Source: a virus
Virus record (IMG/VR): IMGVR_UViG_3300035675_000004
Coordinates: 36,943 to 100,942 of that record
Length of the DNA stretch: 64,000 nucleotides
Strand: one strand, 5' to 3'
The translations under genes and the position numbers were made by a program. The notes beneath the pieces were generated by a model. That model made no database searches, was not told the DNA's origin, and was given only the letters and a program-made list of their open reading frames with translations. Each line of letters starts with the position of its first letter. The stretch's first letter is position 1. Shown here one piece after another: positions 3 to 63,857 of the stretch.

Positions 3-101
3 ATTATTTTAGTTTTATCCGTCAACGGCAAATTCTATTTAAGTCAGAAAGGATGGGAAAAATTTAAAAGAGAGATAGATGACTATATCAGGGAAAAATA
101 A
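3..101 (+). CDS. 3' end of hypothetical protein (truncated by window edge)
   Basis: Open frame ...KREIDDYIREK ending at TAA 99-101, overlapping the next ATG (TAATG). Confidence 0.5.
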   Translation: MILVLSVNGKFYLSQKGWEKFKREIDDYIREK

Positions 102-367
102 TGGGAAAGATAGCCGAGATAATGGAAAGATATCTAATAGAAGATATCGAATATAGTCGAGCCTATAAAGAATGGCGTAAAGCTAAAGACGAATTGATAA
201 AAATGAAAAAACGGGCCGACGGTTTATCTGGTGATGCTAAGAAAAAGGAGAATGAGAAAATAGAACAGCTTAAAAAGAAAGTTGCTAATTTAGCGAAGAA
301 GAAAAATGCTGATGTATATTATAGTATCCGCTTAGATCAACCGATAGGAAGCAAGATGAAAAAATAA
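101..367 (+). CDS. Basic coiled-coil protein with capsid-targeting-like leader (MGKIAEIMERYLIE)
   Basis: 88-aa ORF; leader shared with the ORF family at 12.4-17.9 kb. Confidence 0.7.
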   Translation: MGKIAEIMERYLIEDIEYSRAYKEWRKAKDELIKMKKRADGLSGDAKKKENEKIEQLKKKVANLAKKKNADVYYSIRLDQPIGSKMKK

Positions 368-434: not shown

Positions 435-442
435 TATAAATA
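435..442 (+). promoter_or_regulatory. T4-type late promoter
   Basis: Exact TATAAATA upstream of gp22/gp23. Confidence 0.85.
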
Positions 443-513: not shown

Positions 514-1488
514 ATGTTTGAGGAAATCTTGAAGATGCTAGGCATCGAGAAACTTGAAGAAGCACAGATTACCTCTATCAAGGCAAAGCTCGAAGATATC
601 GTTGATATCAAAGCCCGCGAAAAGTCAGACAGCCTGCTCAAAGAGCAGTCAGAAAAACTTATCGAGGAGTATGAGGAGAAATTCGAGCAGTATAAATCGG
701 ATGTCACAGGAAAGTTTTCTAATTTCGTGGACTCCGTTCTTGAGGAGGAGCTCACGCTTCCAGAGAAAATTGTTGAGTTCGCTAAGAAAGGCGAGCTGTA
801 TGACGAAGTAATCTCAGCACTCAAAGTCAAAATGGCTATTGATGAGGGATTGCTCACAGAAGAAGTTAAGACACTTTTGAGAGAGGCAAGGGATGAAATC
901 TTGAGCCTCAGAGATCAGCTGAATGAAGCCACAGGCGCAAAGATGTCTCTTGAAGAAGATGCAAAGAAACTTGCAGCACATCTTTATTTGAGGCAGAAGT
1001 GTGACGGTTTGGTTGAATCACAGAGGAAAAGAGTTTTGGAAATCCTTGACGATCTTACAACGAAAGATGAGATTGACAGAAAGTTTCAAATTGTTATTGA
1101 TCACGTTCTAAAAGAGGACGATATTCCGGCTACACCGGCTGCTGACCCACACGATCAGAGACCGGATGATACGGATAAAGGCGATACCCCTGCACCCGCT
1201 GGTTTACCAAAGGGGTCAGAGGAGCCTGAAGCAGAAGCCAAAACCTTCCAATGCATTTGCACGAAGTGCGGCGCTCAATCATCTTCCAAGACAGCTTGTG
1301 CTACCACAGCGTGCCCAAGTTGCGGCGGGGGAATGAAAGACGATGAATCAGCTACACCAGCTGATGAGTCAGGACAAGGCCAGATGGAAATTGACGATCC
1401 AGACGGCAAACCAGTGCAGGAGAGTTTAACTCCGTTTGATAATGAAATTCAAAAGTATGTCAAAATTCTGAAAGAGAACAGATTTTAG
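514..1488 (+). CDS. gp22: Prohead core scaffold protein (gp22-like) with an extra Cys-rich insert
   Basis: Acidic coiled-coil protein directly upstream of major capsid gene; AGGAGG RBS; multiple LxE sites. Confidence 0.8.
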   Translation: MFEEILKMLGIEKLEEAQITSIKAKLEDIVDIKAREKSDSLLKEQSEKLIEEYEEKFEQYKSDVTGKFSNFVDSVLEEELTLPEKIVEFAKKGELYDEVISALKVKMAIDEGLLTEEVKTLLREARDEILSLRDQLNEATGAKMSLEEDAKKLAAHLYLRQKCDGLVESQRKRVLEILDDLTTKDEIDRKFQIVIDHVLKEDDIPATPAADPHDQRPDDTDKGDTPAPAGLPKGSEEPEAEAKTFQCICTKCGAQSSSKTACATTACPSCGGGMKDDESATPADESGQGQMEIDDPDGKPVQESLTPFDNEIQKYVKILKENRF

Positions 1489-1509: not shown

Positions 1510-2676
1510 ATGAATACAAAGGATTTGGTAAAGAAATGGGAAGCCATTCTTAATGAAGGCAGAAAGTTCAAATCTAAGAAAGTTCAAAGAGCAACTGCTG
1601 TCATGCTTGAGAATGAGCATAAGTACCTTACCGAAACCGGCAACTATACTCAGACAGGTCTCAATAGGAATGACGGTTATGCAACATCTGGTGATTTTCA
1701 TCAGATTGCCGTTCCTATGGTTAGACGAACATTTCCTGAGCTTGTAGCTCACGAAATCGTAGGCGTTCAGCCAATGACCGGTCCCGTAGGGCTGGCTTTC
1801 GCACTCAGGTTCAGAGCGGGTCAGACATATAACTCGGCTGCTAATACAGAGCTCGGTTATAACACCATTGACACGACATACTCTGGATCTTACACGACAT
1901 CCGCTGGTGAAGCTTATGGTTCTAATGTCACCGGTGATATCGGTCTGGGAATTGGAACAGGCGTGGCCATCAACGAAGTCAATTTGACAATCGAGAAGGC
2001 ACAGGTCGAAGCTAAGACCAGAAAACTCAGGAGCCGTTGGTCTCTTGAAGTCGCTCAGGATCTCAAGGCTATGCACGGTCTTGACCTTGAGGAAGAAATG
2101 ATGGACATTCTCGCATATGAAATCACAGCTGAAATCGATCGTGAGATCGTAGACGCCGTGAATGCAATTGCGGAAGCATCAAGTTGGTCATACTCAACAT
2201 CTGCAGACGGTAGGTGGGAATCTGAGAAATACAGAAACCTCTACAATGTAGTTGTTCGTAGAGCCAACGAGATCGCAATCGACACCCGTAGGGGCGCTGG
2301 TAACTTTGTTCTGGCTGCACCTTATGTTTGTGCCGCATTTGAAGGTCTATCAAGTTTCGTTATCCATCCAACGGATGGCGAAATTAATACATTGGTAGCT
2401 GGTGTTGCCAAAATGGGTTCTCTCGACGGCCGCATTGCGGTTTTCAGAGACACATTCGCTGCATCCGACTACATGACAGTTGGATATAAAGGCCCGTCAG
2501 AGTATGACGCAGGTATTATCTACCTCCCATACATTCAGCTGATGGTATCAAAGACGATTTACGAGCAGTCATTCCATCCAACCGTAGGTTTGATGAGTAG
2601 ATATGCTATCCATAATCATATCTTTGGTGCAAACCTTTACTACAAGAAGGTAACGATTACCGGCTTGCCAACCTAA
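1510..2676 (+). CDS. gp23: Major capsid protein
   Basis: T4 gp23 motifs VGVQPMTGPVGLAFALR, AKTRKLRSRWSLEVAQDLKAMHGLD, EITAEIDREI, YKGPSEYDAGIIYLPY. Confidence 0.97.
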   Translation: MNTKDLVKKWEAILNEGRKFKSKKVQRATAVMLENEHKYLTETGNYTQTGLNRNDGYATSGDFHQIAVPMVRRTFPELVAHEIVGVQPMTGPVGLAFALRFRAGQTYNSAANTELGYNTIDTTYSGSYTTSAGEAYGSNVTGDIGLGIGTGVAINEVNLTIEKAQVEAKTRKLRSRWSLEVAQDLKAMHGLDLEEEMMDILAYEITAEIDREIVDAVNAIAEASSWSYSTSADGRWESEKYRNLYNVVVRRANEIAIDTRRGAGNFVLAAPYVCAAFEGLSSFVIHPTDGEINTLVAGVAKMGSLDGRIAVFRDTFAASDYMTVGYKGPSEYDAGIIYLPYIQLMVSKTIYEQSFHPTVGLMSRYAIHNHIFGANLYYKKVTITGLPT

Positions 2677-2777: not shown

Positions 2778-3302
2778 ATGACTATGCCTGTATTAGATAG
2801 AAAAGGATTAACTGAATTAATGGATATGGATCAGCTGCAACAGGATGTAATAGATGTGGCCGCTGAAACCGTATCTGTAACAGAGGATGAAGATGAAGCT
2901 GTACGCATCCTAAAACAGAATATTGAGAAGGCCAATGTACTTCTCGATAAATGTATTGCGGAAATGAATAACGGTAACTTTTCGGCCCGATTAGTCGAAG
3001 TTTCGAGCCTTTTAGTTAACTCAGTTACCACCGCGAGCGGGCAAATCCTTGCCCACCAAGACGCACAGCAAGGTTTACAAATCAAAGAAAGTATGATAAG
3101 ATTAAAGTCAAAAGAAGTTCTCATTAGAGAGAAATATCTTAGCGGAAAAGAAGCTAAAGAGGGCTCCGGTACCAATCAACAACTTGTAATTACCGATAGA
3201 GAGACCATCCTGAAGTTTCTGCAAGACAAAAACGAAAAGAAAGAAGTCAAACAGGTTGTTTCAACACAACCAAGATTGGAGGACACTGATGATGCCAAGT
3301 GA
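2778..3302 (+). CDS. gp16: Terminase small subunit (gp16-like)
   Basis: Pattern LKQNIEKAN...SARLVEVSSLLVNSV...TNQQLVITDRETILKFL resembles gp16 (PRAYEV...NNALFVGST..LQKLL). Confidence 0.7.
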   Translation: MTMPVLDRKGLTELMDMDQLQQDVIDVAAETVSVTEDEDEAVRILKQNIEKANVLLDKCIAEMNNGNFSARLVEVSSLLVNSVTTASGQILAHQDAQQGLQIKESMIRLKSKEVLIREKYLSGKEAKEGSGTNQQLVITDRETILKFLQDKNEKKEVKQVVSTQPRLEDTDDAK

Positions 3303-5247: not shown

Positions 5248-5248
5248 T

Positions 5249-5527
5249 ATGAGCAAGGAAATTGTGAAGGATAATGTTCAAAAAACCATTGAAGCATTTC
5301 TTTCCCACCATGCGAAAGAGTTATCATCTATAAGAGATAGGTTTATAACAGAGCTGGCCGCGGCCCTGAGAACAAAGGAAGCCGCCCAGCTCACCAACCT
5401 TGAGCTTACCGATATGGATGATAACATTACAGCATGGCTCAACTCGGAAGATAGGTTGAGGGAAATGAGTGTTTTATATGATGAATGGTATTATCCGTAT
5501 ATAGCAAAATATTTTAGAAAAGAATAG
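5249..5527 (+). CDS. Hypothetical protein
   Basis: GAGGAG RBS, ATG 5249; sits between prkA and yeaH. Confidence 0.65.
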   Translation: MSKEIVKDNVQKTIEAFLSHHAKELSSIRDRFITELAAALRTKEAAQLTNLELTDMDDNITAWLNSEDRLREMSVLYDEWYYPYIAKYFRKE

Positions 5528-5536
5528 AGGACAATC

Positions 5537-6844
5537 ATGGGAGTTATTGTTCACGAAGATTGGGATCTGTCGGCCAAAGGTATAAAAGATGCGGAACGAC
5601 ACCGTGAAAAAATTGACGATGTTATCCGCAAGAATATCAAAGATGTCATAGCCGAAGAAGCAATAATCACAAAAAAGCAGGGTCAGAAGATCCGAATACC
5701 TGTCCGTGGCCTGAAAGACTACAAGTTTATCTATGGTAGTACAGGTGCATCTGGCGGTGTAGGTCAGGGTAATGCCAAGGCCGGCGACCTTATTGCTCGA
5801 AGGAGCAAGAGGGGAAAGAAGGGTGATAACAAACCCGGAAATCAGCCCGGCGAAGAATATATGGAAACAGAAGTGAGCATTGATTATCTTATCGAATTGA
5901 TGTTCGCTGATCTTGGATTGCCGTGGATTAAGGACAAGGAGCGAGCAGAGCAACTTGTTCCTAAAGGATGGAAGTTTGAGACCATATCCAAAGTAGGCAT
6001 TCGACCCCGTGTTCACAAACATAGGACACTCAAAGAAACTATGAAGCGAATGGCGATGTATGCTGCCGAAATTATGTCTGATACAGAATGTGATGAGGGT
6101 GATGCATACCGTGCTCTTGTTATGGCCGAGGGTGATTTGAACAAGGCTATTGATATTGCTAAGAGGAAGGCGATTGATGCAAGTATTGATCCGTTCTCCA
6201 TTTTTATTGAGGATGATGACCTTCGGTTCAAACAGATAGAAGAAGATTTTGAGATACACAGCAACGCGGTTGTCTTGGCGATGATGGACACATCTGGTTC
6301 TATGACAAAGGAAAAGAAATATCTCGCGAGAGCGATGTTATTCTGGCTGGTTGAGTTTCTCAAGAAAACCTATAACAATGTCAGGATAAGATTTATCGTT
6401 CATACAACCGAAGCTAAACTGGTTGACGAGGAACACTTCTTCAAGCGTGGAGAGGACGGCGGAACATATTGTCATACCGCCATTGACCTTGCCAACGAAT
6501 TGATTGAGAATGAATATCCTGTCAGTGAATGGAATGTCTATTGTGTTTACATTTCTGACGGTGAAGATTTTTCAGCCGATGAAACAGTAAAGTCTGTAAA
6601 ACAGATGCTGGAGAAGCAAATAAATATGCTTGGATATTGTGAGATAAGATTGAATGGTGAACATTACAGCTCCAGTAATCTACTCGATGCTTTCTTGAAA
6701 GAGAAGTCATTTTCATTCAAGACTAACACCGAGAACGGCACAAACTTTTACAGAGATGACGAGAAACATTTTTTGATGAGCGTAATGAAAAGCAAAAAGG
6801 ATGTATATCCTTGTTTGAGACATTTACTTTTTGAGAAAAAATAG
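5537..6844 (+). CDS. yeaH: YeaH/YhbH (DUF444) vWA-domain protein
   Basis: DWDLSAKGIKDAERH, GVGQG, MMDTSGSM MIDAS, EEHFFKRGEDGGT, WNVYCVYISDGE. Confidence 0.93.
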   Translation: MGVIVHEDWDLSAKGIKDAERHREKIDDVIRKNIKDVIAEEAIITKKQGQKIRIPVRGLKDYKFIYGSTGASGGVGQGNAKAGDLIARRSKRGKKGDNKPGNQPGEEYMETEVSIDYLIELMFADLGLPWIKDKERAEQLVPKGWKFETISKVGIRPRVHKHRTLKETMKRMAMYAAEIMSDTECDEGDAYRALVMAEGDLNKAIDIAKRKAIDASIDPFSIFIEDDDLRFKQIEEDFEIHSNAVVLAMMDTSGSMTKEKKYLARAMLFWLVEFLKKTYNNVRIRFIVHTTEAKLVDEEHFFKRGEDGGTYCHTAIDLANELIENEYPVSEWNVYCVYISDGEDFSADETVKSVKQMLEKQINMLGYCEIRLNGEHYSSSNLLDAFLKEKSFSFKTNTENGTNFYRDDEKHFLMSVMKSKKDVYPCLRHLLFEKK

Positions 6845-6852
6845 GTGCGGGA

Positions 6853-7095
6853 ATGAAGGTAACACAAAAAGATGTGAATATTGGTGATAATTTTATTGTA
6901 ACAGAAGATCTATTTGTAATGGAAAAGCCCGGTGCCGCCCTTGATAGACACGGATATCTTCTTGAAGGTGATAGAGTCACTGTCACGAAAAGACCGAGAA
7001 GATATGATGAAATAAACTGTGTTGAGTTTGAATGTAAGGGGGATGTATTTTATTCATACTGGATAGATTTTAGAAAGAGCACGGAAAGGGTGTAA
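6853..7095 (+). CDS. Hypothetical protein
   Basis: 80-aa ORF tightly packed between yeaH and spoVR. Confidence 0.65.
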   Translation: MKVTQKDVNIGDNFIVTEDLFVMEKPGAALDRHGYLLEGDRVTVTKRPRRYDEINCVEFECKGDVFYSYWIDFRKSTERV

Positions 7096-7097
7096 CA

Positions 7098-8693
7098 ATG
7101 AAGAAAGAAGAATACCAAAGGTTGATGAAAATCGAAGGAAAGATCGTCAAGCTGATGGAGGAATACGGTCTAAGGTGTTTGCCGGTTGAGTTTGATGTTA
7201 TTCCGCCACAGAAGATGATGGAAATCCTTGCGTATAGAAGTCCTACCAATATCTCCAACTGGAAATATGGTCGCGACTACGAAAGGCTGAGAACCATTTT
7301 TGACAAGGTTGATGCTGGATTGCCATACGAGCTGGTTATCAATGACAGCCCGGCGAGAGCATACTTGATGAACTCCAATACACTTTCTACACAGGTATTG
7401 GTTATGGCGCATGTTTATGCGCATGTCAACTTCTTTACAGAAAGCAGATGGTTCCAAAAATCGAGAAATGACATTATCGAAGTTATGGCTGAAGCTAATA
7501 AACGGTTTAACTATTACGAGAGATTGTATGGTCTCGATCAGGTTGAACGGATTGTTGATGCTGGCCATGCGCTTCAATGGCATTCGTCACCGTTTGAGAT
7601 GGAGACGGAGGACGAGAAACGAAAGAGAATTTTCGAGAGGGAACGTAAGACATTTATTCCATCGAAATCTGAATTTTCTGATGTTCTCCCAAAGGACAAG
7701 AGAAAGAAAATTATCTCTGATGTCGAGATGTATAACAACAAACTCTGGAAAACCCTTATGGGTATGTCGCCTGTAGAGCCTACAGAAGATTTCTTGAGAT
7801 TTATTATTGACAACTCGCAGGTTCTTGAAGATTGGGAAAAGGATATACTTGAGATTTTGAGGATAGAGGGTCAGTATTACTGGCCTCATATCAGAACAAA
7901 GTATATGAACGAAGGATGGGCTACATTTGTCCACGAAAGAATTATGAAGGTATTGTTTGACGAGGGATATCTCGATGCTACCGAGCACGGTGAATACGCC
8001 TACAATAACTCTCTTGTCAAAGGCACCAATAAACTTTCAATGAACCCCTATCTTGTAGGCTCTGAAATGTGGAAAGACATTAAGGAGAGATGGGATAAGG
8101 GAAGATACGGCACAGAATATGAAAACTGTACGGATCACAATGAGAGGGAAAAGTGGGATACGAAGGAGATGGTCGGTGAGAAAAAGATACAGGAAGTTCT
8201 CAAATCCTATACTGATTGGTTCTTTATGCAGGACTTTCTCACGGTTGACCTTATAGATAAGCTTGACCTGTATATCTATCAGATGGTCGAAACAGCCGGT
8301 TCTATAGACTATGTGAGGACAAAACACGAACGCAAAGAAGTCCGTGATTTGATAGTAAACAGCTTTGCTCATAGTGGTGTTCCGAAAGTTGAAATCGTTG
8401 ATGCCGGGAAATCCACCGGCGGCGGAATGATACTGGTTCACAGGTATAATAACATTCCGTTAGACCCGAAATATACCGAAGAAACATTGAAACACATTTG
8501 CAGATTGTGGGGCAGGCCTATTGCTCTCAAGACAGTAGTAAATGACAAGGAGCATATTTACACTGTTACAGATGAAGAAACAGCTGTGCAGCACAGTAAT
8601 GCTCCGACGCCAGGTGCTAAAGCAGCCAAACTCTTTTATTTCAGACATTTGATTGATCTCAACCCCGTGGAAAACACGATCAATATCGAGTAG
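7098..8693 (+). CDS. spoVR: SpoVR/YcgB family protein
   Basis: WKYGRDY, YELVIN, LVMAHVYAHVNFF, LEDWEKDIL, TKYMNEGWATFVH, NPYLVG. Confidence 0.93.
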   Translation: MKKEEYQRLMKIEGKIVKLMEEYGLRCLPVEFDVIPPQKMMEILAYRSPTNISNWKYGRDYERLRTIFDKVDAGLPYELVINDSPARAYLMNSNTLSTQVLVMAHVYAHVNFFTESRWFQKSRNDIIEVMAEANKRFNYYERLYGLDQVERIVDAGHALQWHSSPFEMETEDEKRKRIFERERKTFIPSKSEFSDVLPKDKRKKIISDVEMYNNKLWKTLMGMSPVEPTEDFLRFIIDNSQVLEDWEKDILEILRIEGQYYWPHIRTKYMNEGWATFVHERIMKVLFDEGYLDATEHGEYAYNNSLVKGTNKLSMNPYLVGSEMWKDIKERWDKGRYGTEYENCTDHNEREKWDTKEMVGEKKIQEVLKSYTDWFFMQDFLTVDLIDKLDLYIYQMVETAGSIDYVRTKHERKEVRDLIVNSFAHSGVPKVEIVDAGKSTGGGMILVHRYNNIPLDPKYTEETLKHICRLWGRPIALKTVVNDKEHIYTVTDEETAVQHSNAPTPGAKAAKLFYFRHLIDLNPVENTINIE

Positions 8694-10535: not shown

Positions 10536-10543
10536 TATAAATA
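10536..10543 (+). promoter_or_regulatory. T4-type late promoter
   Basis: Exact TATAAATA upstream of gp13. Confidence 0.85.
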
Positions 10544-12473: not shown

Positions 12474-12824
12474 ATGAGATTTGGAAAATATCTAACAGAA
12501 TTTACAGATCCAGCTTTAAGAAACTTGGAGCAAAACGCTGAAAAAGAAGCGAAAGAGGAAGCCAAGAAACTGGAAAAGGCCTTCAGGGATAGAATAGATG
12601 ATACAATGAAATCTCTGGATTGGTTTGCCAAGGAAACAATTAAACTGACACCTGATGTAAAGGAACAGGCAAAGGAGTTCAATGTTTTCGTGAGTAGGCT
12701 TATAGGATTTCAACAAGATACTATGTCTTGGAATTACTCATTTAAAATGTTGGATGAATTGATAGACAATATCGAGGAGCACGCCAAATTTATCAGGAAA
12801 AAATATGGATGGTATGGAAAATGA
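12474..12824 (+). CDS. Putative internal head protein (leader MRFGKYLTE); paralog of 13354
   Basis: Leader motif; C-terminus EHAKFIRKKYGWYGK. Confidence 0.7.
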   Translation: MRFGKYLTEFTDPALRNLEQNAEKEAKEEAKKLEKAFRDRIDDTMKSLDWFAKETIKLTPDVKEQAKEFNVFVSRLIGFQQDTMSWNYSFKMLDELIDNIEEHAKFIRKKYGWYGK

Positions 12825-12825
12825 A
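12798..12825 (+). repeat. 28-bp direct repeat, copy 1 (AAAAAATATGGATGGTATGGAAAATGAA)
   Basis: Identical to 13678-13705; spans a stop/start ATGA overlap. Confidence 0.9.
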
Positions 12826-13093
12826 GGTAGATGAGAAGATAGAAAACTATTTGACAGAAATAATGCCGAGAGGGTTTGGCTATCAGATGGATAAAAAAGT
12901 GTTGAGAATTATAAAATATAGAGAAGTTAATGTTGAATGTTGTGGAACCTGTATGTATTTTAAGGGAGAGGTTTGTAAAAATCCTGAAAATATTGCGACA
13001 GCAGCCGATGTTCTTGATACTGTAATTCCAGCATCTGCCGGATTATCTACCAGCGTAAATGGTCTTTGCGAAGTTTATAAAAGGAGATGGTAA
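12821..13093 (+). CDS. Putative internal head protein (leader MKVDEKIENYLTE) with 4-5 Cys motif
   Basis: ATGA overlap start; CGTC...C...GLCEVY. Confidence 0.7.
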   Translation: MKVDEKIENYLTEIMPRGFGYQMDKKVLRIIKYREVNVECCGTCMYFKGEVCKNPENIATAADVLDTVIPASAGLSTSVNGLCEVYKRRW

Positions 13094-13354
13094 GTGAAAA
13101 GTATAGATGAGAAGATTGATATGTATCTTGGAGAGGGATATAAGGATGACCTGAAAGTTTTGAGGAACGCTGACAAGGCGCTCCAAAAAGCTCTACACGG
13201 TAACTATCCAGAACTCGACAAGATTGCAAAGGAAATGGCAAAAAGCGTTGCTATTGATATCAATAAAAAAACATCGGGTGTTGTATCTGATATGCCTTAT
13301 AAAGCACAGTATGTCTTGGAAAAGCTGATTAGATTATTACAGGAGAAAGTATAA
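13094..13354 (+). CDS. Putative internal head protein (leader MKSIDEKIDMYLGE)
   Basis: GTG start with AGGAG RBS; leader motif. Confidence 0.7.
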   Translation: MKSIDEKIDMYLGEGYKDDLKVLRNADKALQKALHGNYPELDKIAKEMAKSVAIDINKKTSGVVSDMPYKAQYVLEKLIRLLQEKV

Positions 13355-13704
13355 TGGGAAAGATAGACGAAAAGATTGATATGTATTTGAATGAGGCTGT
13401 ATCAGGTCAATTAGCCAGTCAACTCAGAGCCGCACAGAAAAGAGCCGACGATGCTTTCAAAGAAGGTGTCAGAAATACATTGAAAGCAATGGACGAATAT
13501 GCAAAGGAAACCTGCGTTGATTTATACAAGGGTGACATACAGAAACAATCTGAATGCTTCGCCTCTTTTTATGCTAAGCTTATTATCTTTGTCCAAGACC
13601 AGTTCCAGCCCTATATGTCAGATGCATTGGTAAATGAGCTTGTAAGTGATATGGATGAGCACGCAAAAACTCTCAGAAAAAAATATGGATGGTATGGAAA
13701 ATGA
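13354..13704 (+). CDS. Putative internal head protein (leader MGKIDEKIDMYLNE); paralog of 12474
   Basis: Leader motif; C-terminus EHAKTLRKKYGWYGK. Confidence 0.7.
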   Translation: MGKIDEKIDMYLNEAVSGQLASQLRAAQKRADDAFKEGVRNTLKAMDEYAKETCVDLYKGDIQKQSECFASFYAKLIIFVQDQFQPYMSDALVNELVSDMDEHAKTLRKKYGWYGK

Positions 13705-13705
13705 A
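13678..13705 (+). repeat. 28-bp direct repeat, copy 2
   Basis: Identical to 12798-12825. Confidence 0.9.
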
Positions 13706-14132
13706 AAGGATAGATGAACGCTTAAGCGAATACCTTGATGAGAAAACATTAGATGTGTTTGCTAAACATCAGGTAGCCATTGCAAGAAAGACATTAAAAA
13801 TGTCAGATGCTGGTGCAAAAATAATGGGCGGTATGAACAAAGAGGAGGCCAGAGCTGTTCTCAAGAAATATGGTCTGAAAGAAGAAGTTTTGACAGAAGG
13901 CCTCGGCCCAATCTTTCTAAAACAAGAGGGCCCAAATTTTACCAAAATTTATGTGAGCGGAAAGACATTATGGTTTTCTTATGAAACACTGGTTGCTTTT
14001 AGTGACGGAAGCAAAACCTATGCAACATCCGAAAAGTTTAGCAACACAACTTCCAGACAAATGGGTACTATAGATGTGGATGTGTGGTTAGGCGATGATG
14101 ATTTTCTAACACTTGCGAGGAAAAAATTATGA
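13701..14132 (+). CDS. Putative internal head protein (leader MKRIDERLSEYLDE), two-domain
   Basis: Leader motif; internal LKEEVLTE linker; C-terminal FSYETLVAF...FSNTTSRQ domain. Confidence 0.7.
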   Translation: MKRIDERLSEYLDEKTLDVFAKHQVAIARKTLKMSDAGAKIMGGMNKEEARAVLKKYGLKEEVLTEGLGPIFLKQEGPNFTKIYVSGKTLWFSYETLVAFSDGSKTYATSEKFSNTTSRQMGTIDVDVWLGDDDFLTLARKKL

Positions 14133-14464
14133 CAGATATTATAGAAAGACTTGATTATATTTTGAAAGAGGATTATGTTGACAGGTTGGGGCAATCGAAG
14201 GTCATAAAATTTCTTGATCAAAATAAAAAGAAAACAGATCACTTCGGCGGAAATGTGAGAGTGTCCACTACTAATAAGCGATGGGCATTTGGATTAGGTG
14301 GCGGAACAGACCTTCATTTCATTCAGGCCGTCCTGACAGCAGACGGAAAGTGGAAAGTCAACTCCTCACAGGGTATAGCCAAGGTAACTAAGAATACTCT
14401 TACTGACGATGAGATGTTACAAAAAGTAAAAGCCATATTCGATAAATCAGGGGAGAAGAAATGA
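14129..14464 (+). CDS. Putative internal head protein (leader MTDIIERLDYILKE)
   Basis: ATGA overlap; leader motif. Confidence 0.65.
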   Translation: MTDIIERLDYILKEDYVDRLGQSKVIKFLDQNKKKTDHFGGNVRVSTTNKRWAFGLGGGTDLHFIQAVLTADGKWKVNSSQGIAKVTKNTLTDDEMLQKVKAIFDKSGEKK

Positions 14465-14835
14465 AAAAGGTACATGAGAAAATTGACAATTATCTGAATG
14501 AAGATAAGTCATCTCAAGCGAGAGCTGAGATGAAGATTGTTTTTGAAAATATTAGGCATATTATGATTGATGCTGTAATGGATGCTGATGCAGCTCTACA
14601 GGATTTTGTAAATGATAAACTGGAGCGCAAAATCTTTGTGCCAGCAATCAAGAAAATAATAAAAGAACTGGATAGTGCTGGTGACGCGGCTGAGGGCAAC
14701 TGGCAAATACAAACAAGCTCTGTAGATAAGATATTTGCAGACTACCATAAAGAAGTTGTAAAACAGTTTGGTGCAGGAAGTCCGGTAGTCGATGCTTACT
14801 GGAATGCTGTTGAAGAACTATGGTTTGAGAGGTAG
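14461..14835 (+). CDS. Putative internal head protein (leader MKKVHEKIDNYLNE)
   Basis: GGGGAG RBS; leader motif. Confidence 0.7.
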   Translation: MKKVHEKIDNYLNEDKSSQARAEMKIVFENIRHIMIDAVMDADAALQDFVNDKLERKIFVPAIKKIIKELDSAGDAAEGNWQIQTSSVDKIFADYHKEVVKQFGAGSPVVDAYWNAVEELWFER

Positions 14836-14839
14836 GAAG

Positions 14840-14971
14840 ATGGGGGCATTGGTAGATAATGAATGGGAAGATAAAATAAAAAAAGTGGACGAAAAGATCG
14901 ACGCTGGTTATAAAGAAATCCGTAAATTGGATGAAAAGCCCGCGGAGAAACCGAAAGAAAAGGAAAAATAA
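14840..14971 (+). CDS. Small charged protein, 43 aa (not in ORF track)
   Basis: MGALVDNEWEDKIKKVDEKIDAGYKEIRKLDEKPAEKPKEKEK; GAGGT RBS; fills the gap. Confidence 0.55.
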   Translation: MGALVDNEWEDKIKKVDEKIDAGYKEIRKLDEKPAEKPKEKEK

Positions 14972-14972
14972 A

Positions 14973-15260
14973 ATGAGACTACGAAATTTCTTGGAAGAAG
15001 AATTAAAGAATGTCAACTGGCCGAAATTTCTCAAAGCAACAATGCAACAGACCATTGCGGATCTTGAGGCCCAAGCGGATTATATCGTCAAGAAAAACCC
15101 GGCCACAGCAGAAAAAGAATTTGAAAGATTTGTTGATGCTATTAAATCCTCAAATCTCAAAGCTGTCAGCACGCTTGATATACCTAAAGAGATGATGCAA
15201 CAGGTCAACTATCAGATAGATTTCGCTGTCAAAGAAATAAAAAAAGAATATGGATGGTAA
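14973..15260 (+). CDS. Putative internal head protein (leader MRLRNFLEEE)
   Basis: Leader motif; ends KKEYGW like 12474/13354. Confidence 0.65.
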   Translation: MRLRNFLEEELKNVNWPKFLKATMQQTIADLEAQADYIVKKNPATAEKEFERFVDAIKSSNLKAVSTLDIPKEMMQQVNYQIDFAVKEIKKEYGW

Positions 15261-15576
15261 AGAAATGGACAAGATGAACGCACATACACCGCTTCTTGGC
15301 GGAGAGAGAAGAACAATAAACGAGGCTGATCTCGATAGTAAAATGGATAAACTCGAAGAAGATATCAGTAATGTATTGGATGTTATGGGAGACGCGTATG
15401 ATGATATTCAAAACGAGTGGTCAGATGCATCTGGAATGATGTATCAGTATGATTTATCACAGACACCTAAAATAATCGCTGCTGCAAAGAAGCTTATAAA
15501 AGTTACCAATGATCTTATCACCAAAGTAGAGTTGATGACAAATCTGGAAAAGGCAAGACAAAAAGAAAAGAAATGA
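15250..15576 (+). CDS. Hypothetical coiled-coil protein
   Basis: ORF within the small-gene array; RRTINE site; start uncertain. Confidence 0.6.
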   Translation: MDGKEMDKMNAHTPLLGGERRTINEADLDSKMDKLEEDISNVLDVMGDAYDDIQNEWSDASGMMYQYDLSQTPKIIAAAKKLIKVTNDLITKVELMTNLEKARQKEKK

Positions 15577-17327
15577 ATTTTTCGACCTTCCTAACGGAAC
15601 AGAAGTCAAAAGCGGTGGGCATATTTATCGGAAGGGTAACGCCACCCACGATAGCCCACCAAAAAATTATAGAGGATGCCTTCAGAAAGTACTCTAAGGT
15701 CTATATCTTTATCATCGAGGGCGAAAAAACCTCACAGCTTACAAAAAACTTTTTGTCGTTCAATCAGAGAAAAGAAATTCTCAAGGTCACAAATCCGAGA
15801 GCCATCCCTATTCTCGCTAAGGCTGGATATATCCCCGATATAATCGAGCAGAACCATATTGACACATCTAACGGTGTGGCTATTATCGCTGGGTCTGACA
15901 GGATAGACGGATATATGAACCAATTTGGAGATGTGAAATACAATGTTATTCCTGACGAGATAAAGAGAACGGCCAGTGATGTATCGGCATCGAAAGTCAG
16001 AGCGGCCCTCGCTGAAAAGGACTTCGCAACATACAAGAGAATGATAGCCAAGGGGCTCGACAATCAGAGATGGTTTGATGAGTTGAGAAAACGAATGGCT
16101 CGGAAGGGAAATGAAATAGAAGAAATAAGGTCTCTGAAAGATATTATCACAGAAGAAGTCAACAAGCACATTGAGCACTTTGAGGATAATATGCTGAATA
16201 TGGGCGTCGAGGGCATTCAGCAAAATGTTCTCATAGCTAAGACATTGAGAGATACTCTATCTGGTTCATCAGCTGTAAAGGCCAAGATAACCGTGAAGTG
16301 GGATGGTGCGCCTGCCGTATTTTTTGGTATCAATCCAGAGAACGGAAAGTTTTTTGTGTCCACAAAAGCTATATTCAACAAGGAGCCGAAGATAGCCTAC
16401 ACCCCACAGGATGTAAAGGCATATTTTGGCCATGCGCCGAACCTTGTAACCAAATTGATTGATTGCCTGAAATACCTGCCCTCTCTCGGCATAAACACCA
16501 TATATCAAGGCGACCTGCTTTTCACCAATGACAAGAAGTTTGAAAAAATAGACGGTATCGCCAGCATTACATTTACACCGAACACAATAACATATGCCAT
16601 CCCAAACGATGACTCCGACTTGGCTAAGGCTGTCAGGGGAGCAAGAATAGGCATTGTTGTGCACACCGAGTATGTAGGCAAGACTATTGATACATTGTCA
16701 GCAAAGTATGATGTAAATGTAAAAAGATATTCAAATAGTAATGTATGGATTACGGACGCATATTTCGAGGATGATTCCGGTATAATCAATTTTACCAAGA
16801 AAGAGATTGGTGACATTGATTATATGATAGGAGAAGTTGAGAGAGTATCGAGGTATGTGAAGAGCGATATCTTCGTGAAACTGAGAGACTACGGTATCTA
16901 TGAGTTATTCCGAAGATTTCATAATGAGCAGATAAAACAGGGTGCCCCTTTGAATGCGGTGTCAAAATATTTTGATGACTTTGTAACCTACATAGAGAAC
17001 GCCCTTACTTCTTTACCGGCAAAAACACAGGCGACAATAGACAAAAGAACACAGAAAATTGAGGAAATCAAAATGTTCCTCAATAAATACAGGAGGGAGA
17101 TAGTGGGGATATTCTACCTGTATCTTCTTTTTATACGAATGAAAAATATTTTCGTCCAGAAGCTCAGCCAGATAAGTAGTGTTGGAACATTCATTCGTAG
17201 TGGTGACGGTTACAGAGTGACAAAGCCAGAAGGGTTCTGCGTTATTGACAATGACGGCAGTATATTGAAACTGGTTGACCGACTTGAATTTTCGAGGGCA
17301 AACTTTACATTGGAGAAGGTATGGTAA
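15573..17327 (+). CDS. Fusion: HIGH-type nucleotidyltransferase + ligase-like (DUF6267-type) domain, with leader MNFSTFLTE
   Basis: GRVTPPTIAHQKII, AGSDR, SASKVR; then NKHIEHFED, TVKWDG, YQGDLLF, PEGF, KLVDRLEFS. Confidence 0.8.
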   Translation: MNFSTFLTEQKSKAVGIFIGRVTPPTIAHQKIIEDAFRKYSKVYIFIIEGEKTSQLTKNFLSFNQRKEILKVTNPRAIPILAKAGYIPDIIEQNHIDTSNGVAIIAGSDRIDGYMNQFGDVKYNVIPDEIKRTASDVSASKVRAALAEKDFATYKRMIAKGLDNQRWFDELRKRMARKGNEIEEIRSLKDIITEEVNKHIEHFEDNMLNMGVEGIQQNVLIAKTLRDTLSGSSAVKAKITVKWDGAPAVFFGINPENGKFFVSTKAIFNKEPKIAYTPQDVKAYFGHAPNLVTKLIDCLKYLPSLGINTIYQGDLLFTNDKKFEKIDGIASITFTPNTITYAIPNDDSDLAKAVRGARIGIVVHTEYVGKTIDTLSAKYDVNVKRYSNSNVWITDAYFEDDSGIINFTKKEIGDIDYMIGEVERVSRYVKSDIFVKLRDYGIYELFRRFHNEQIKQGAPLNAVSKYFDDFVTYIENALTSLPAKTQATIDKRTQKIEEIKMFLNKYRREIVGIFYLYLLFIRMKNIFVQKLSQISSVGTFIRSGDGYRVTKPEGFCVIDNDGSILKLVDRLEFSRANFTLEKVW

Positions 17328-17665
17328 TGAAAAACAAACTTAAAAAATATTTAACAGAAGATGCTGGGCCCGGCAATAAAATATATGTATTTGATCACGG
17401 CAAAGCAGTTGGTTATTCGGAATCCGCAGCGCCGGCCTGTCTTACTTGTTTTTATAGCCTTCAACAAAATGTAAAAGCTGGCCATCATTTTGTAGACAGG
17501 ATGACCTGTGAAAATCCAAATGTTTTTGAGGCTATTGCCAATGAACTGACAGCGCTAGGATTTTCTGATTTCAAGGGGGAAAATCCGATGAAATATCACG
17601 GTCAGTTTGATATGATGGTACACCCACAGGGTAAGTGCAAATTCTGGAAAAGAGGTAGATCATAG
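17327..17665 (+). CDS. Putative internal head protein (leader MKNKLKKYLTE) with 4-Cys motif
   Basis: TAATG overlap; CLTC...C...VHPQGKCKFW. Confidence 0.7.
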   Translation: MKNKLKKYLTEDAGPGNKIYVFDHGKAVGYSESAAPACLTCFYSLQQNVKAGHHFVDRMTCENPNVFEAIANELTALGFSDFKGENPMKYHGQFDMMVHPQGKCKFWKRGRS

Positions 17666-17667
17666 AA

Positions 17668-17916
17668 ATGAAAAAGATAAGCGAGCTGATGGAAAAATAT
17701 CTTATTGAGGAAAAAAAGGAAATGCCGGCTATTATCTGGAAGAAAGAGAACAAGAAAGGAATGCTGAGCAAGCTCAAGAATATGAAAGCCAAGGGATTCA
17801 AGACAGTGAGAATACATTCTGATAGTAGAGATCCTTATGGTTATACAAAATCTATCGCTGCTGCTATAAAAGACCTTGAGGCGTCAGTTGAAAAAGAAAG
17901 GACAAAGAAAAAATAA
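17668..17916 (+). CDS. Putative internal head protein (leader MKKISELMEKYLIE), basic
   Basis: Leader nearly identical to ORF 101. Confidence 0.7.
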   Translation: MKKISELMEKYLIEEKKEMPAIIWKKENKKGMLSKLKNMKAKGFKTVRIHSDSRDPYGYTKSIAAAIKDLEASVEKERTKKK

Positions 17917-32446: not shown

Positions 32447-32447
32447 G

Positions 32448-35251: not shown

Positions 35252-35617
35252 ATGAGACTAATAAAATACCTGTCCTACTCTGGATTGGATGACAAGACCA
35301 ATATCTTTAGAGCCCTGTCTATCAAACTGGTTGACGCGCCGATGACAGCGAACAGGGAGATTGTGTCCGAAGTTGTGGATAGGTATAAACTTGACGAAGA
35401 ATTGCTTACCATTATAGATGATCTAAATAAACAACTCAAAAAAACATACAAAGGAAAACTAAAATTCGATTTTTGTTTGGAAGAAGGAAGCGAGATTTCT
35501 AAGGTAAAGACGAAACGAGCAGAGAGATTGAAACTCAAGGCTTTCGAGGCCAGCAGGTTCCTGAGTAAGCAACAGTTTCATCTTGAGAAAAAACTGAGCG
35601 ATGAGATGAACAAATAA
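35252..35617 (+). CDS. Hypothetical protein (leader MRLIKYLS)
   Basis: Abuts the previous stop codon. Confidence 0.6.
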   Translation: MRLIKYLSYSGLDDKTNIFRALSIKLVDAPMTANREIVSEVVDRYKLDEELLTIIDDLNKQLKKTYKGKLKFDFCLEEGSEISKVKTKRAERLKLKAFEASRFLSKQQFHLEKKLSDEMNK

Positions 35618-35640
35618 ATGGTGTATTACTGAGGAGGACA

Positions 35641-35669
35641 TTTACTCGGTAGCATCATTGTATTATAAT
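35641..35669 (+). promoter_or_regulatory. Sigma70/early-type promoter for the gp55-gp47-gp46 unit
   Basis: TTTACT, 17-nt spacer, TATAAT. Confidence 0.75.
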
Positions 35670-35680
35670 AGGTATAAAAA

Positions 35681-36118
35681 ATGGCGAGAAAAAAGAATAT
35701 GAGTAATGGTGGTTACTATATAAGAAATAGTGACCTTTTGCCTGAAATAGTGAAGTACAAAGAGAATGGTTGCGCTTCTGAAAGCCTCGGGAAGATGCTT
35801 ATGACCATCGCTTCAAACTTTTCATCAAAGGGTAGTTTTTCTGGATATACTTGGCGGGAAGATATGGTGTCCGATGCCGTTCTAACCTGTCTCAAATATC
35901 TGAAAAACTTTGATGAGAAGAAGTCACAAAATGCGTTTGGATATATTACACAGATTTGTAAAAATGCCTTTCTAACATATATTAAAGACCAAAATAAGCA
36001 TAGTGTGATAAAAGATATTTGTTATAAAGAAGCCGTTCAACACATCAGGGAACAAGCTGATAGTAGAGAAGTGGAGAAAGAGCTTAAAGGTATTAATTAT
36101 CAAAAATTTCTTGAATAA
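35681..36118 (+). CDS. gp55: Late-transcription sigma factor
   Basis: YIRNSDLL, FSGYTWREDMVSDA, KYLKNFD, NAFGYITQI..NAFL. Confidence 0.93.
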   Translation: MARKKNMSNGGYYIRNSDLLPEIVKYKENGCASESLGKMLMTIASNFSSKGSFSGYTWREDMVSDAVLTCLKYLKNFDEKKSQNAFGYITQICKNAFLTYIKDQNKHSVIKDICYKEAVQHIREQADSREVEKELKGINYQKFLE

Positions 36119-61747: not shown

Positions 61748-61767
61748 TTATATTTATATAAATATAA
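61748..61767. promoter_or_regulatory. Divergent overlapping late promoters forming a 20-bp palindrome
   Basis: TTATATTTATATAAATATAA; TATAAATA on - (61751-61758) and + (61757-61764). Confidence 0.8.
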
Positions 61768-61794
61768 AGAGAAACCTATATTATGGGGCGGCCA

Positions 61795-62055
61795 ATGCGA
61801 TTTGAACAATACTTGTTAAACGAAGGAATTTCCAGTATCATCGCTAATCTTCTTAGTAGATTTGCTGGAATGAAACCTGCCCAAGTGAAATACCATCTCA
61901 ATATAAGCTGGTATGATTTCGTTGATACAGTCAGAAAAAGAGGAAACGAGAGGGAAATGGTGGAATTTATCAACAAAACTTTTCATCAGAGTATCGAATC
62001 TCTGGACGATGTAAATCTACAGAAATTAAAACTGGCTATGGAACGGCACAAATGA
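61795..62055 (+). CDS. Putative internal head protein (leader MRFEQYLLNE)
   Basis: Leader motif; first gene after late promoter. Confidence 0.65.
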   Translation: MRFEQYLLNEGISSIIANLLSRFAGMKPAQVKYHLNISWYDFVDTVRKRGNEREMVEFINKTFHQSIESLDDVNLQKLKLAMERHK

Positions 62056-62504
62056 GATTTCTAAAATATCTTCAAGAAAAATACACTGGAATATACAAGT
62101 ATGCTGGGCATCATACCGAAGTATATGAAAATCCCTCACCGAATGAAATAAGAATGATGCCTAAAATATACAAAAGCTCTGATACATATCCAGATTGTTC
62201 TATCAGGTTTATTGCCTATGCCCCGAAGAAACAGATTTTTATCTGGGCTTCAGACGGTGGTATTCATATGGGCGTTTTCAAGTATCTCAAACAGAAAGGT
62301 GAACTTGGTGGTGCCCGGCACATAGCTGACACGGGCGTTTTCTCAGGATATGCTTCACAGGGCGGCAACAAGATGCAGTTTGAAAGAGGGTATGGTCTCG
62401 GCGCTGGAGAAATTGATATAAGAACGAGTGACTGGGCATACCTCAATAATTATTTCGGAAATATGGCAAGGGTAGCCGATTATATCGGGAGGCCAGACGA
62501 TTGA
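62052..62504 (+). CDS. Putative internal head protein (leader MRFLKYLQE); paralog of 63429
   Basis: EVYENPSPNEIR...SIRF.AYAP...GIH. Confidence 0.7.
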   Translation: MRFLKYLQEKYTGIYKYAGHHTEVYENPSPNEIRMMPKIYKSSDTYPDCSIRFIAYAPKKQIFIWASDGGIHMGVFKYLKQKGELGGARHIADTGVFSGYASQGGNKMQFERGYGLGAGEIDIRTSDWAYLNNYFGNMARVADYIGRPDD

Positions 62505-63427
62505 AATTTAAAAAATATATCTTAACCGAGGAAGCCGACAAATTTCTCAGGGCGATTGAAGAAAGCCCGCACAAAGATAGATTTATTGTCGGTGATATTC
62601 CGCCGGCTACGAAGGATGAAACCCACTATTATATCGGAACAGGTATGATGGGATCCAACTATACCTTGAGATATAATTGGCTTGAAGTATATCATTACAG
62701 GACAAGCCCCACTTCTTATAGTGTATCTTTAAGACCTCGCGATAACTATATTCTAAACTTGTCACCCAAGCCGGAAACAGCGATAGAGAAGGCTGTCGCC
62801 TACTTGAAACAAAACGAAAAAATCTACTACTCTCCATTTGAGCTTCACAAGAGAGCCGAAGCGAGAGACACAGATATCATCAAATTCGGAAAACATAGTG
62901 GCAAAAGTCTCTACGATATGGTCAAAGAAAATCCAAGATATGTAGCTTGGATGGCCATTGATACTTTTGAGGACAAGGGGTTTTTGAACAAACCAAAATA
63001 TAATGCCTTCAAAAATTTACTGTCTCAGGTAGCGAAGGATAAGGATGTTGCCCCTTTCATTGACGCTGAATTGGAAAAAAGAGAGAAAAAGGCGAGAGAT
63101 GCAGAAATAGAGAAAGAGCTGGCCAAAGACAGAATTGAAAAATTCAGGCCTATTGTTGATGTATTGAAACAGGTAAAGTATGAAAGCGACTTTATCAAAT
63201 CAATGGTAGATACATTGAAGGCCGGGGAAAACATCCAGAAACGATGGTCGCCAAAGGTATTCAGCATAGTGGCAGATGTATATGCGAAAACAAAATCCGA
63301 GGGAGCCAGAAGGGGCAGTAAAGACTATGAAGCTGCACGAAGCGAGTTTCTCGATATAGTGGAAAAGAGCGCCGAGGATGTTCCACAACACAGACCTGTT
63401 TGGCAGGGTTGGTGGAAAAGGTGGTAG
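62501..63427 (+). CDS. Putative internal head protein (leader MKFKKYILTE) with FGKH(S)G module
   Basis: TTG start; IIKFGKHSGKSLYDMVKENPRYVAW resembles ExoX C-terminal/DUF3820 module. Confidence 0.7.
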   Translation: MKFKKYILTEEADKFLRAIEESPHKDRFIVGDIPPATKDETHYYIGTGMMGSNYTLRYNWLEVYHYRTSPTSYSVSLRPRDNYILNLSPKPETAIEKAVAYLKQNEKIYYSPFELHKRAEARDTDIIKFGKHSGKSLYDMVKENPRYVAWMAIDTFEDKGFLNKPKYNAFKNLLSQVAKDKDVAPFIDAELEKREKKARDAEIEKELAKDRIEKFRPIVDVLKQVKYESDFIKSMVDTLKAGENIQKRWSPKVFSIVADVYAKTKSEGARRGSKDYEAARSEFLDIVEKSAEDVPQHRPVWQGWWKRW

Positions 63428-63428
63428 G

Positions 63429-63857
63429 ATGAGATTTAAAAAATATCTTGAAGAAAACTATATCGGAACATATAAGGGCTCAGTAAAATTTGGCGAAGTA
63501 TATGAAAATCCATCACCAAATGAAATAAGGTCTATGCCTTCCAAATCAAGGTTTTGGGATGATTCCATCAGATTTTTTGCCTATGCCCCAGAAAAGACGA
63601 TATACATTTGGGGTGCCGATGCTGGTATTCACGATACCGTCCTTGATTTTCTTCACACCAAAAGAAAACTCAGAACCGTCTATGATGTAGAGGGTGATGG
63701 TGTATTGGCCGGATACGCCGAGAAAACAGGGGATAAAATGTCATTCACAAAAGGGTATGGAGCGGCAAAAGGCATAGGAAACTACGAGTGGGATTGGTTA
63801 TCGAAGTATTTCAGAAATATGGAATATATCAGAGCAAGGATTGAGCAGTGGACATGA
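63429..63857 (+). CDS. Putative internal head protein (leader MRFKKYLEE); paralog of 62052
   Basis: EVYENPSPNEIR...SIRFFAYAP...GIH. Confidence 0.7.
   Translation: MRFKKYLEENYIGTYKGSVKFGEVYENPSPNEIRSMPSKSRFWDDSIRFFAYAPEKTIYIWGADAGIHDTVLDFLHTKRKLRTVYDVEGDGVLAGYAEKTGDKMSFTKGYGAAKGIGNYEWDWLSKYFRNMEYIRARIEQWT

Follow-up and report, generated by a model that had tools for sequence, protein, structure and literature searches.

Candidate capsid targeting sequences on a large set of proteins encoded by an uncultured relative of phage T4

The window analysed here is a stretch of 64,000 nt, bases 36943–100942 of a single 100,942-base virus contig (IMG/VR record IMGVR_UViG_3300035675_000004) estimated to be ∼46% complete. 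It contains 17 open reading frames (ORFs) that begin with short, related leaders, considered here as candidate capsid targeting sequences (CTS) of the kind known from bacteriophage T4. The leaders had been quoted in an initial annotation of the DNA, and all 17 were found in the window, each on a real ORF. One of these ORFs starts at position 101, eleven lie in 12474–17916 and five follow from 61795 to the contig end (Table 1). A purine-rich, Shine–Dalgarno-like stretch precedes most of the leader ORFs.

Upstream of the window, six small leader ORFs surround the prohead protease gene (contig starts 34486, 34994, 35878, 36075, 36544 and 36801), and a 763-aa leader protein (contig 32170–34458) is encoded between the portal gene and these small ORFs. 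The 763-aa protein has no family match and shows a weak resemblance in the atlas to restriction-endonuclease-like folds (TM 0.23–0.26). It was also considered as the portal, which is ruled out because the Portal_T4 match (E 3e-95) belongs to the preceding 563-aa gene. The total comes to at least 23–24 tagged genes on about half a genome. They are confined to the portal–protease–scaffold block, the interval between gp14 and gp15 and one array behind a late promoter. Between the protease and the scaffold candidate the space is filled by leader ORFs, of which the ORF at 101 is the final one; the equivalent neighbourhood of T4 holds the core proteins gp67 and gp68. The initial annotation would have been contradicted by a motif equally common on early or non-virion genes, and the distribution is a different one: the recombination genes (homologues of gp46, gp47 and UvsX), the gp55-type sigma gene and the minus-strand sugar genes carry no leader.

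By its genes, the source phage belongs to the T4 superfamily as a distant, uncultured member. Its major capsid protein (MCP) is of the gp23 family (phrog_138, E 5e-94) and is at most 36% identical to that of any cultured phage, the top matches being Phage C48C1, Pelagibacter phage HTVC008M and the Sinorhizobium phiM phages; a Megablast search of the leader array against cultured phages gave no match. The prohead protease is of the gp21 type (Peptidase_S77, E 2.1e-33, contig 35327–35764) and is encoded, at contig 35273–35881, among the leader genes. The contig also encodes the large terminase, gp13-like and gp14-like neck proteins, gp15, the gp55-type late sigma factor, and homologues of SbcD/SbcC (gp47/gp46) and UvsX. 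Two sister contigs were available for comparison: G001 (neck protein 65% and MCP 84% identical to those of the source phage) and G002 (protease 61% and MCP 62% identical). A Peptidase_S77 protease is encoded by G001, by G002, by the cultured methylophage Melnitz-2 and by T4 as well.

Table 1. Leader ORFs, late promoter cores and other features of the window (window coordinates)
Feature	Position	Strand	Basis or remark
Leader protein, 88 aa, basic, long 14-aa leader	101..367	+	Final small leader ORF ahead of the scaffold candidate
T4-type late promoter core TATAAATA	435..442	+	Upstream of scaffold candidate and MCP
Candidate scaffold at gp22 position, 324 aa, no family hit	514..1488	+	Position only
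MCP (gp23 family)	1510..2676	+	Propeptide with W-E-A-I-L-N-E at aa 10–16 and K-Y-L-T-E at aa 41–45
Late promoter core TATAAATA	10536..10543	+	Before gp13-like neck gene
Cargo candidate, 116 aa, short leader	12474..12824	+	Paralogue of 13354–13704
Cargo candidate, 90 aa, Cys-rich, long leader	12821..13093	+	Start overlaps end of preceding gene
Cargo candidate, 86 aa, long leader	13094..13354	+	GTG start
Cargo candidate, 116 aa, long leader	13354..13704	+	Body 40% identical to 12474–12824
Cargo candidate, 143 aa, long leader	13701..14132	+	Upstream junction repeats the 12769–12825 junction DNA
Cargo candidate, 111 aa, basic, long leader	14129..14464	+	
Cargo candidate, 124 aa, long leader	14461..14835	+	G001 orthologue keeps leader
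Cargo candidate, 95 aa, short leader	14973..15260	+	Distant paralogue of 12474
Leaderless ORF within array, 108 aa	15250..15576	+	
Enzyme cargo candidate, 584 aa, short leader	15573..17327	+	Nucleotidyltransferase and DUF6267
Internal leader-like site L-K-D-I-I-T-E	16134..16154	+	Domain junction of the enzyme
Cargo candidate, 112 aa, Cys-containing, short leader	17327..17665	+	
Cargo candidate, 82 aa, basic, long leader	17668..17916	+	G001 orthologue has leader
gp55-type late sigma factor, leaderless	35681..36118	+	
Late promoter core TATAAATA	61757..61764	+	Directly before third leader array
Cargo candidate, 86 aa, short leader	61795..62055	+	
Cargo candidate, 150 aa, short leader	62052..62504	+	46% identical paralogue of 63429–63857
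Cargo candidate, 308 aa, short leader	62501..63427	+	TTG start, weak ExoX-like_C motif
Cargo candidate, 142 aa, short leader	63429..63857	+	
Cargo candidate, short leader, cut by contig end	63854..64000	+	Only G002 relative also leadered

The leaders occur at N-termini far more often than expected. A strict motif, (polar)-[Y/F]-[L/I]-x(1-2)-E, required to begin no later than residue 15, was present in 20 of 116 greedy ORFs against 0.73 expected from the internal frequency of the motif. A looser pattern defined at P7, P4, P3 and P1 (residues counted back from the terminal Glu, P1) gave 23 against 2.5 expected; in T4 the looser scan recovered ipII, ipIII and gp24, with the rest of T4 near expectation. 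A position matrix was also derived from the leaders and scanned, as the initial annotation had proposed: at ≥10 bits it found 16 N-termini against 0.21 expected. Out of sample, the same matrix gave 14 N-terminal hits in G002 (0.41 expected) and no such hits in T4 or in cyanophage S-8S53.

Aligned on the P1 Glu, the leaders agree at three further positions, P7 being hydrophobic, P4 aromatic (Tyr or Phe) and P3 either Leu or Ile; 23 leaders, 9–14 aa long, terminate in [L/I]-x(1-2)-E. The two leader styles described earlier hold up, with short leaders of 9–11 aa and long leaders of 12–14 aa. Short leaders have little beyond the P7, P4, P3 and P1 residues, and long leaders extend by another turn, Ile or Leu being found near P11, and show the acidic/basic pattern typical of an amphipathic helix. 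Since the codons vary (P3 Leu is encoded by CTT 10 times, TTG five, CTA three, TTA three and CTG once, and P1 Glu uses both codons), conservation lies at the protein level. This synonymous variation, together with a likeness of only 63–73% among the DNA copies of the leaders, rules out a DNA repeat.

In T4, a CTS is present on the internal proteins IPI, IPII and IPIII, as well as on the gp24 and Alt propeptides, and is removed by gp21 (Mullaney and Black 1996; reviewed in PMC9026906, PMC3012670 and PMC5694885). Propeptides of this system are short (10–19 aa) and end in (L/I)-x-E, and the CTS binds to a scaffolding core of the gp22 type. Suppressor-substitution work assigned residues 4 and 7 of the T4 CTS to targeting and residues 8 and 10 to processing (PMC9026906), and the first ten residues are enough to load foreign proteins (PMC9026906, PMC10229621). 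The spacing of the leaders described here equals that of the IPII and IPIII CTS (Tyr4, Phe7, Ile8 and Glu10) and that of the gp24 propeptide; the T4 targeting and processing residues fall at P7/P4 and P3/P1, respectively, the positions conserved in the present set. T4 IPI has the same start as the IPII/IPIII tag, but its cut lies further on, behind I-T-E at residue 19.

The capsid maturation site leads to the same motif. The MCP start, which the initial annotation had given as ending in E-A-I-L-N-E, was confirmed, and the MCP propeptide has in addition a K-Y-L-T-E sequence (nt 1630–1644) just before the conserved mature region, which is likely the maturation cut. The corresponding MCP sites are K-Y-L-S-E in G001, N-Y-L-M-E in G002, F-L-S-E in Melnitz-2 and S-8S53, and F-L-T-E in T4; [Y/F]-L-x-E is conserved across the six phages and K/N-Y-L-x-E within this clade. 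In T4 gp23, F-L-T-E spans residues 62–65 and ends at the mapped maturation cut. The length given for the gp23 propeptide is 65 residues (PMC5694885). As the MCP is the one certain substrate of the protease, its site suggests that the protease motif coincides with the five residues at the end of most leaders. The protease itself has L-I-T-E at residues 5–8, an N-terminus similar to that of T4 Alt and to the L-I-E-9 site of T4 gp21, and the N-terminus of the 324-aa scaffold candidate also fits hydrophobic-x-x-hydrophobic-[LI]-x-E.

Both main arrays had been placed downstream of late promoters. For the array at 61783 this holds without qualification, TATAAATA standing directly before it, whereas for the main array the core (10536) lies ∼1.9 kb upstream; no convincing plus-strand terminator was found between 10536 and 19248. 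The core is also present at contig 34459, just upstream of the leader ORF that follows the 763-aa leader protein, and upstream of the sheath gene (19248). In three phages, the sister contigs included, such cores precede leader genes. The presence of a gp55-type sigma factor makes these promoters plausible. By these signals, the leader arrays appear to be expressed late.

The proteins behind the leaders are mostly unrelated to one another, as the initial annotation had stated: an all-against-all BLASTP comparison gave as paralogues only 12474/13354/(14973) and 62052/63429. Almost all of the small bodies remained without assignment in PHROGs and Pfam; several are markedly basic, as are the T4 internal proteins. 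The paralogues at 12474 and 13354, with bodies 40% identical, differ in leader style, the first having a short and the second a long leader. A 57-nt direct repeat of 88% identity (12769–12825 and 13649–13705) spans the ends of these two paralogous genes and the overlapping starts of two unrelated leader genes, its own end falling within their leaders. The differing leader styles and the duplicated junction fit a tag exchanged as a module. The repeat might mark a place where cassettes are exchanged by recombination.

There seem to be two sorts of cargo: enzymes, and small, often basic proteins near the head genes that are similar to T4 internal proteins or to core proteins. Some of the small basic proteins by the protease and scaffold genes may not be effectors but serve in the prohead core or in DNA condensation. 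The family of the protein at 63854 was considered as an ADP-ribosyltransferase of the Alt/Mod type. A BLASTP comparison of its G002 relative with T4 Alt gave no match, and resemblance in the atlas to ART-PolyVal clusters is weak (TM 0.25–0.29); neither result supports the assignment.

The largest enzyme of the window is the 584-aa product of 15573–17327, in which a HIGH-motif nucleotidyltransferase (Pfam CTP_transf_like, with a fold matching NadM/NMNAT and PPAT) is joined to a DUF6267 domain (Pfam E 3e-103). DUF6267 has a K-x-D-G motif (K242, D244 and G245), invariant in 45 homologues, which corresponds to the motif I lysine of the superfamily of ATP-dependent RNA/DNA ligases (covalent nucleotidyltransferases). 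With a model of the domain (pLDDT 83), a VIA-wide structure search independent of Foldseek placed RNA or DNA ligases at all 15 top chains. The best match was the Naegleria nick-sealing RNA ligase 5cot (Z 8.9, 184 residues aligned, root-mean-square deviation 4.0), followed by the tRNA ligase Trl1, T4 Rnl2 and T4 Rnl1. The Foldseek matches of the domain model were weak (E ≥0.07), a Foldseek search with the full-length model saw the N-terminal nucleotidyltransferase domain only, and the DUF6267 sequence had no match in the PDB. The Z values are moderate. Because Foldseek alone is weak, we assign an RNA-ligase-like fold to DUF6267 with moderate confidence, and any ligase activity is putative.

The DUF6267 family has >6,800 homologues. 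The leader pattern is present in 78 of the 120 best hits, a set that mixes stand-alone, fused and truncated forms; stand-alone members outside the 78 mostly deviate from it at one position. In stand-alone members a T4-like 10-aa leader stands directly before the domain, in some cases identical at six of ten positions to the T4 IPIII tag; the cyanophage homologue begins at the domain itself, without a leader. In fused forms, a leader-like site is found at the domain junction, which here is L-K-D-I-I-T-E in a linker predicted to be disordered. In the 45-sequence alignment of fused and stand-alone forms, the Glu of this site (E194) is invariant; it shares its column with the P1 Glu that ends the N-terminal leader in stand-alone proteins. 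We infer that the junction is a retained tag turned into an internal protease site, by which one tagged polyprotein would give two enzymes in the head; the 584-aa enzyme is probably cut in two there. A literature search on DUF6267 found no paper, most subscription journals being outside its coverage.

An intein-like insertion was observed in the G001 orthologue of this gene (L002:12881–15211), right after K-W-D-G and with Cys as the next residue; the DUF6267 exteins resume with conserved sequence after the insertion. Inteins usually sit at catalytic sites. The large terminase gene of G001 (L002:5725–8286, 853 aa) also has an intein-like insert.

The sister contigs carry leaders too. G001 has a syntenic, smaller array between gp14 and gp15, in which most orthologues keep the leader. 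About two dozen leader genes, of both short and long style, form two arrays in G002, and almost none of them is orthologous to a leader gene of the source phage; judged from these gene sets, the cargo repertoire turns over quickly between relatives. The tagged proteins of G002 include a CCA-adding tRNA nucleotidyltransferase (PolyA_pol, E 1e-34; phrog_2244, E 9e-79), a Zeta-toxin/AAA_33 P-loop kinase with a further match to a polynucleotide-kinase family, an NT5C-like HAD protein and a D-x-D-x-T HAD phosphatase with a weak match to a polynucleotide-kinase family. Within a G002 leader array there is also a RimK-type ATP-grasp protein with a Zn-protease-like part (L129:5395–6819), whose N-terminus has the T4 CTS spacing with Asp at P1. 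In the T4 CTS, replacement of the P1 Glu by Asp blocks cutting and retains targeting and packaging (PMC9026906).

Melnitz-2 has a handful of leaders, including those of DUF6267 and cytidylyltransferase genes. Four adjacent genes of this marine Methylophilales phage (L090:1378–6041), encoding a 361-aa protein, a DUF6267 protein, a 130-aa basic protein and a 650-aa cytidylyltransferase-like protein, each begin with a CTS-like leader. Cyanophage S-8S53 had no leaders above chance.

Taken together, we consider the leaders to be T4-type CTS that double as propeptides for the prohead protease, to which we assign a probability of about 0.72. The reading is supported by the CTS spacing, the identity with the MCP site, the S77 protease, the late signals and the head and neck location of the genes, and further by the presence of the tag on homologues of proteins that are leaderless in cyanophages. 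The initial annotation had proposed a removable, portable tag of this type on many more proteins than in T4, and all of the sequence-level tests agree with that part of its claim, whereas the anti-defence or host-takeover function that it attached to the cargo is something we infer.

The proposed mechanism would run as follows. Tagged proteins would be made late, and their amphipathic N-terminal peptide would dock them on the scaffolding core of the assembling prohead, the long form providing one more helical turn with Ile at P11. The gp21-family protease would then cut after the Glu, at the same K-Y-L-x-E site as is used in MCP maturation. The freed bodies would remain in the head alongside the DNA and be injected with it into the next host. 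Of these steps, the sequence comparisons strongly suggest targeting and cleavage; docking, retention and injection would complete the path. In sum, a large and fast-changing protein cargo is probably shipped with the DNA, and an anti-defence role may be proposed for it.

As a tentative and rather doubtful extension, the capsid might be pre-loaded with a kit of RNA-repair and nucleotide enzymes, some parts of which would be freed from fusions by the head protease, to counter tRNA- or cofactor-targeting defences before phage expression begins. Such a kit could comprise the DUF6267 RNA-ligase-like and NMNAT/PPAT-like domains of the source phage and, in G002, the CCA-adding enzyme, the polynucleotide-kinase-like kinase and the HAD phosphatases, all of them tagged. 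DUF6267 would then be a widespread virion enzyme of marine T4-like phages.

The leaders could instead be propeptides of prohead-core or scaffold-like assembly proteins, to be degraded or expelled as T4 gp22, gp67 and gp68 are. The seven small leader ORFs among the portal, protease and scaffold genes occupy the place of T4 gp67 and gp68, several of their products are small and basic or coiled-coil-like, and the N-terminus of the scaffold candidate fits the pattern too. Tagged enzymes in the source phage and in G002 would, however, make little sense as disposable scaffold, and the turnover of the repertoire between close relatives is unlike that of core assembly parts. As an account of the whole set we regard this alternative as unlikely; it may be valid for a subset, e.g. 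the small proteins near the protease. Descent from one tandem-duplicated, fast-diverging paralogous family, with the leader as a remnant without address function, would explain the two or three paralogue groups and the duplicated junction (88% identity). Yet the bodies have different folds (HIGH nucleotidyltransferase, ligase-like, PolyA_pol, Zeta/AAA_33 kinase and HAD), the same families are leaderless in cyanophages, and only the 8–14 leader residues are common, ending exactly at a protease-type site, which leaves this explanation the most improbable of all that we weighed.

The leaders might also be recognized by some other partner, e.g. a modifying enzyme of the radical-SAM maturase kind or a chaperone, or might signal degradation or translation. 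In favour of this, the third array abuts a cluster with radical-SAM enzymes (three matches on the contig), and A-rich codons after the start could help translation. The main arrays, though, do not adjoin radical-SAM genes, and neither G002 (120 kb, with the largest leader set) nor the complete genome of Melnitz-2, which has leaders, contains a radical-SAM gene; moreover, it is the residues and not the codons that are conserved. As the partner, the S77 protease is indicated by the invariant terminal Glu, by P3 being Leu or Ile and by the agreement with the MCP site, and we hold recognition by another one to be very unlikely.

Several considerations weigh against reading the leaders as T4-type CTS. 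The lineage is uncultured, its closest cultured MCP being 36% identical, and what is expected from T4 would be an analogy drawn across ∼35% MCP identity. The scaffold was assigned by position alone, with no significant family match. Some G001 orthologues have Lys or Asp in place of the P1 Glu, hence not every copy need be processed. Room would be needed inside the head for at least 24 cargo species, some of them large (584 and 763 aa). Finally, T4 gp61.1, a hypothetical protein of 54 aa whose gene (NC_000866 18966–19130, minus strand) adjoins the primase gene, has a CTS-like N-terminus: its decapeptide is identical to the IPII/IPIII CTS at seven of ten positions, and its first seven residues are those of IPI. 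Such a leader-like N-terminus means that the motif by itself is no proof of packaging.

Read as a CTS system, the set resembles that of T4 in its short tag, gp21-family protease, late promoter with gp55, unrelated bodies and MCP cut motif. It differs in scale, as T4 has three internal proteins and a few structural proteins with the tag; in its two leader styles, with an extended form of 13–14 aa; in its arrays inside head and neck modules; and in its tagged RNA-ligase-like and NMNAT/PPAT-like enzymes, with a likely internal cut in the fusion. The bodies have no sequence similarity to IPI–III or Alt. The internal proteins of T-even phages have been reviewed as a diverse defence-countering set with only the CTS in common, and the CTS as a possible evolutionary route for loading varied proteins (PMC3012670, PMC9026906).

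The giant phages phiKZ, 201phi2-1 and SPN3US process head and ejection proteins with a prohead protease related to that of T4, which takes off their propeptides (PMC5694885, PMC7411985). The likeness extends to the many head-loaded proteins (tens in the giant phages), to propeptides thought to target them, to a motif ending in Glu and to conserved N-termini among paralogues. Giant-phage propeptides, however, are mostly >100 residues long with A/S/G-x-E as the motif, compared with 9–14 aa and [Y/F]-L-x-E here, and, unlike those phages, the source phage has portal, MCP, neck and tail genes of the T4 type. The Dar antirestriction system of phage P1 likewise packages defence-countering proteins in the head, by an N-terminal capsid-targeting region, and delivers them with the DNA; it differs in its ordered, protein-dependent loading, its few cargo species and its lack of a shared short cleavable tag.

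Work on T4 had already established the CTS as a portable tag that gp21 removes. What appears new from the genes is the scale, the two styles, the arrays in head and neck modules, the tagged enzymes with a probable internal cut and the wide presence of the tag on DUF6267 proteins. Our literature search, outside whose coverage most subscription journals lie, found no paper on any of these points, large CTS repertoires beyond the T-even phages included. If the proposed reading is true, genome sequence alone would identify the injected proteome across an uncultured T4-like branch, and dozens of fast-changing proteins per phage would become prime candidates for counter-defence and host takeover. 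Enzymes such as the RNA-ligase-like protein would travel inside the capsid. The large orphan family DUF6267 would gain a fold and a likely location. The leaders would also add naturally occurring variants to the packaging tag with which foreign proteins are already loaded into T4 heads.

Apart from the leader genes, the window has three large genes (663, 435 and 531 aa) at 3256–8693, which separate the MCP region from the large terminase. Their matches are phage families of unknown function; for one of them a ‘sporulation protein’ family gives a further, weaker match.

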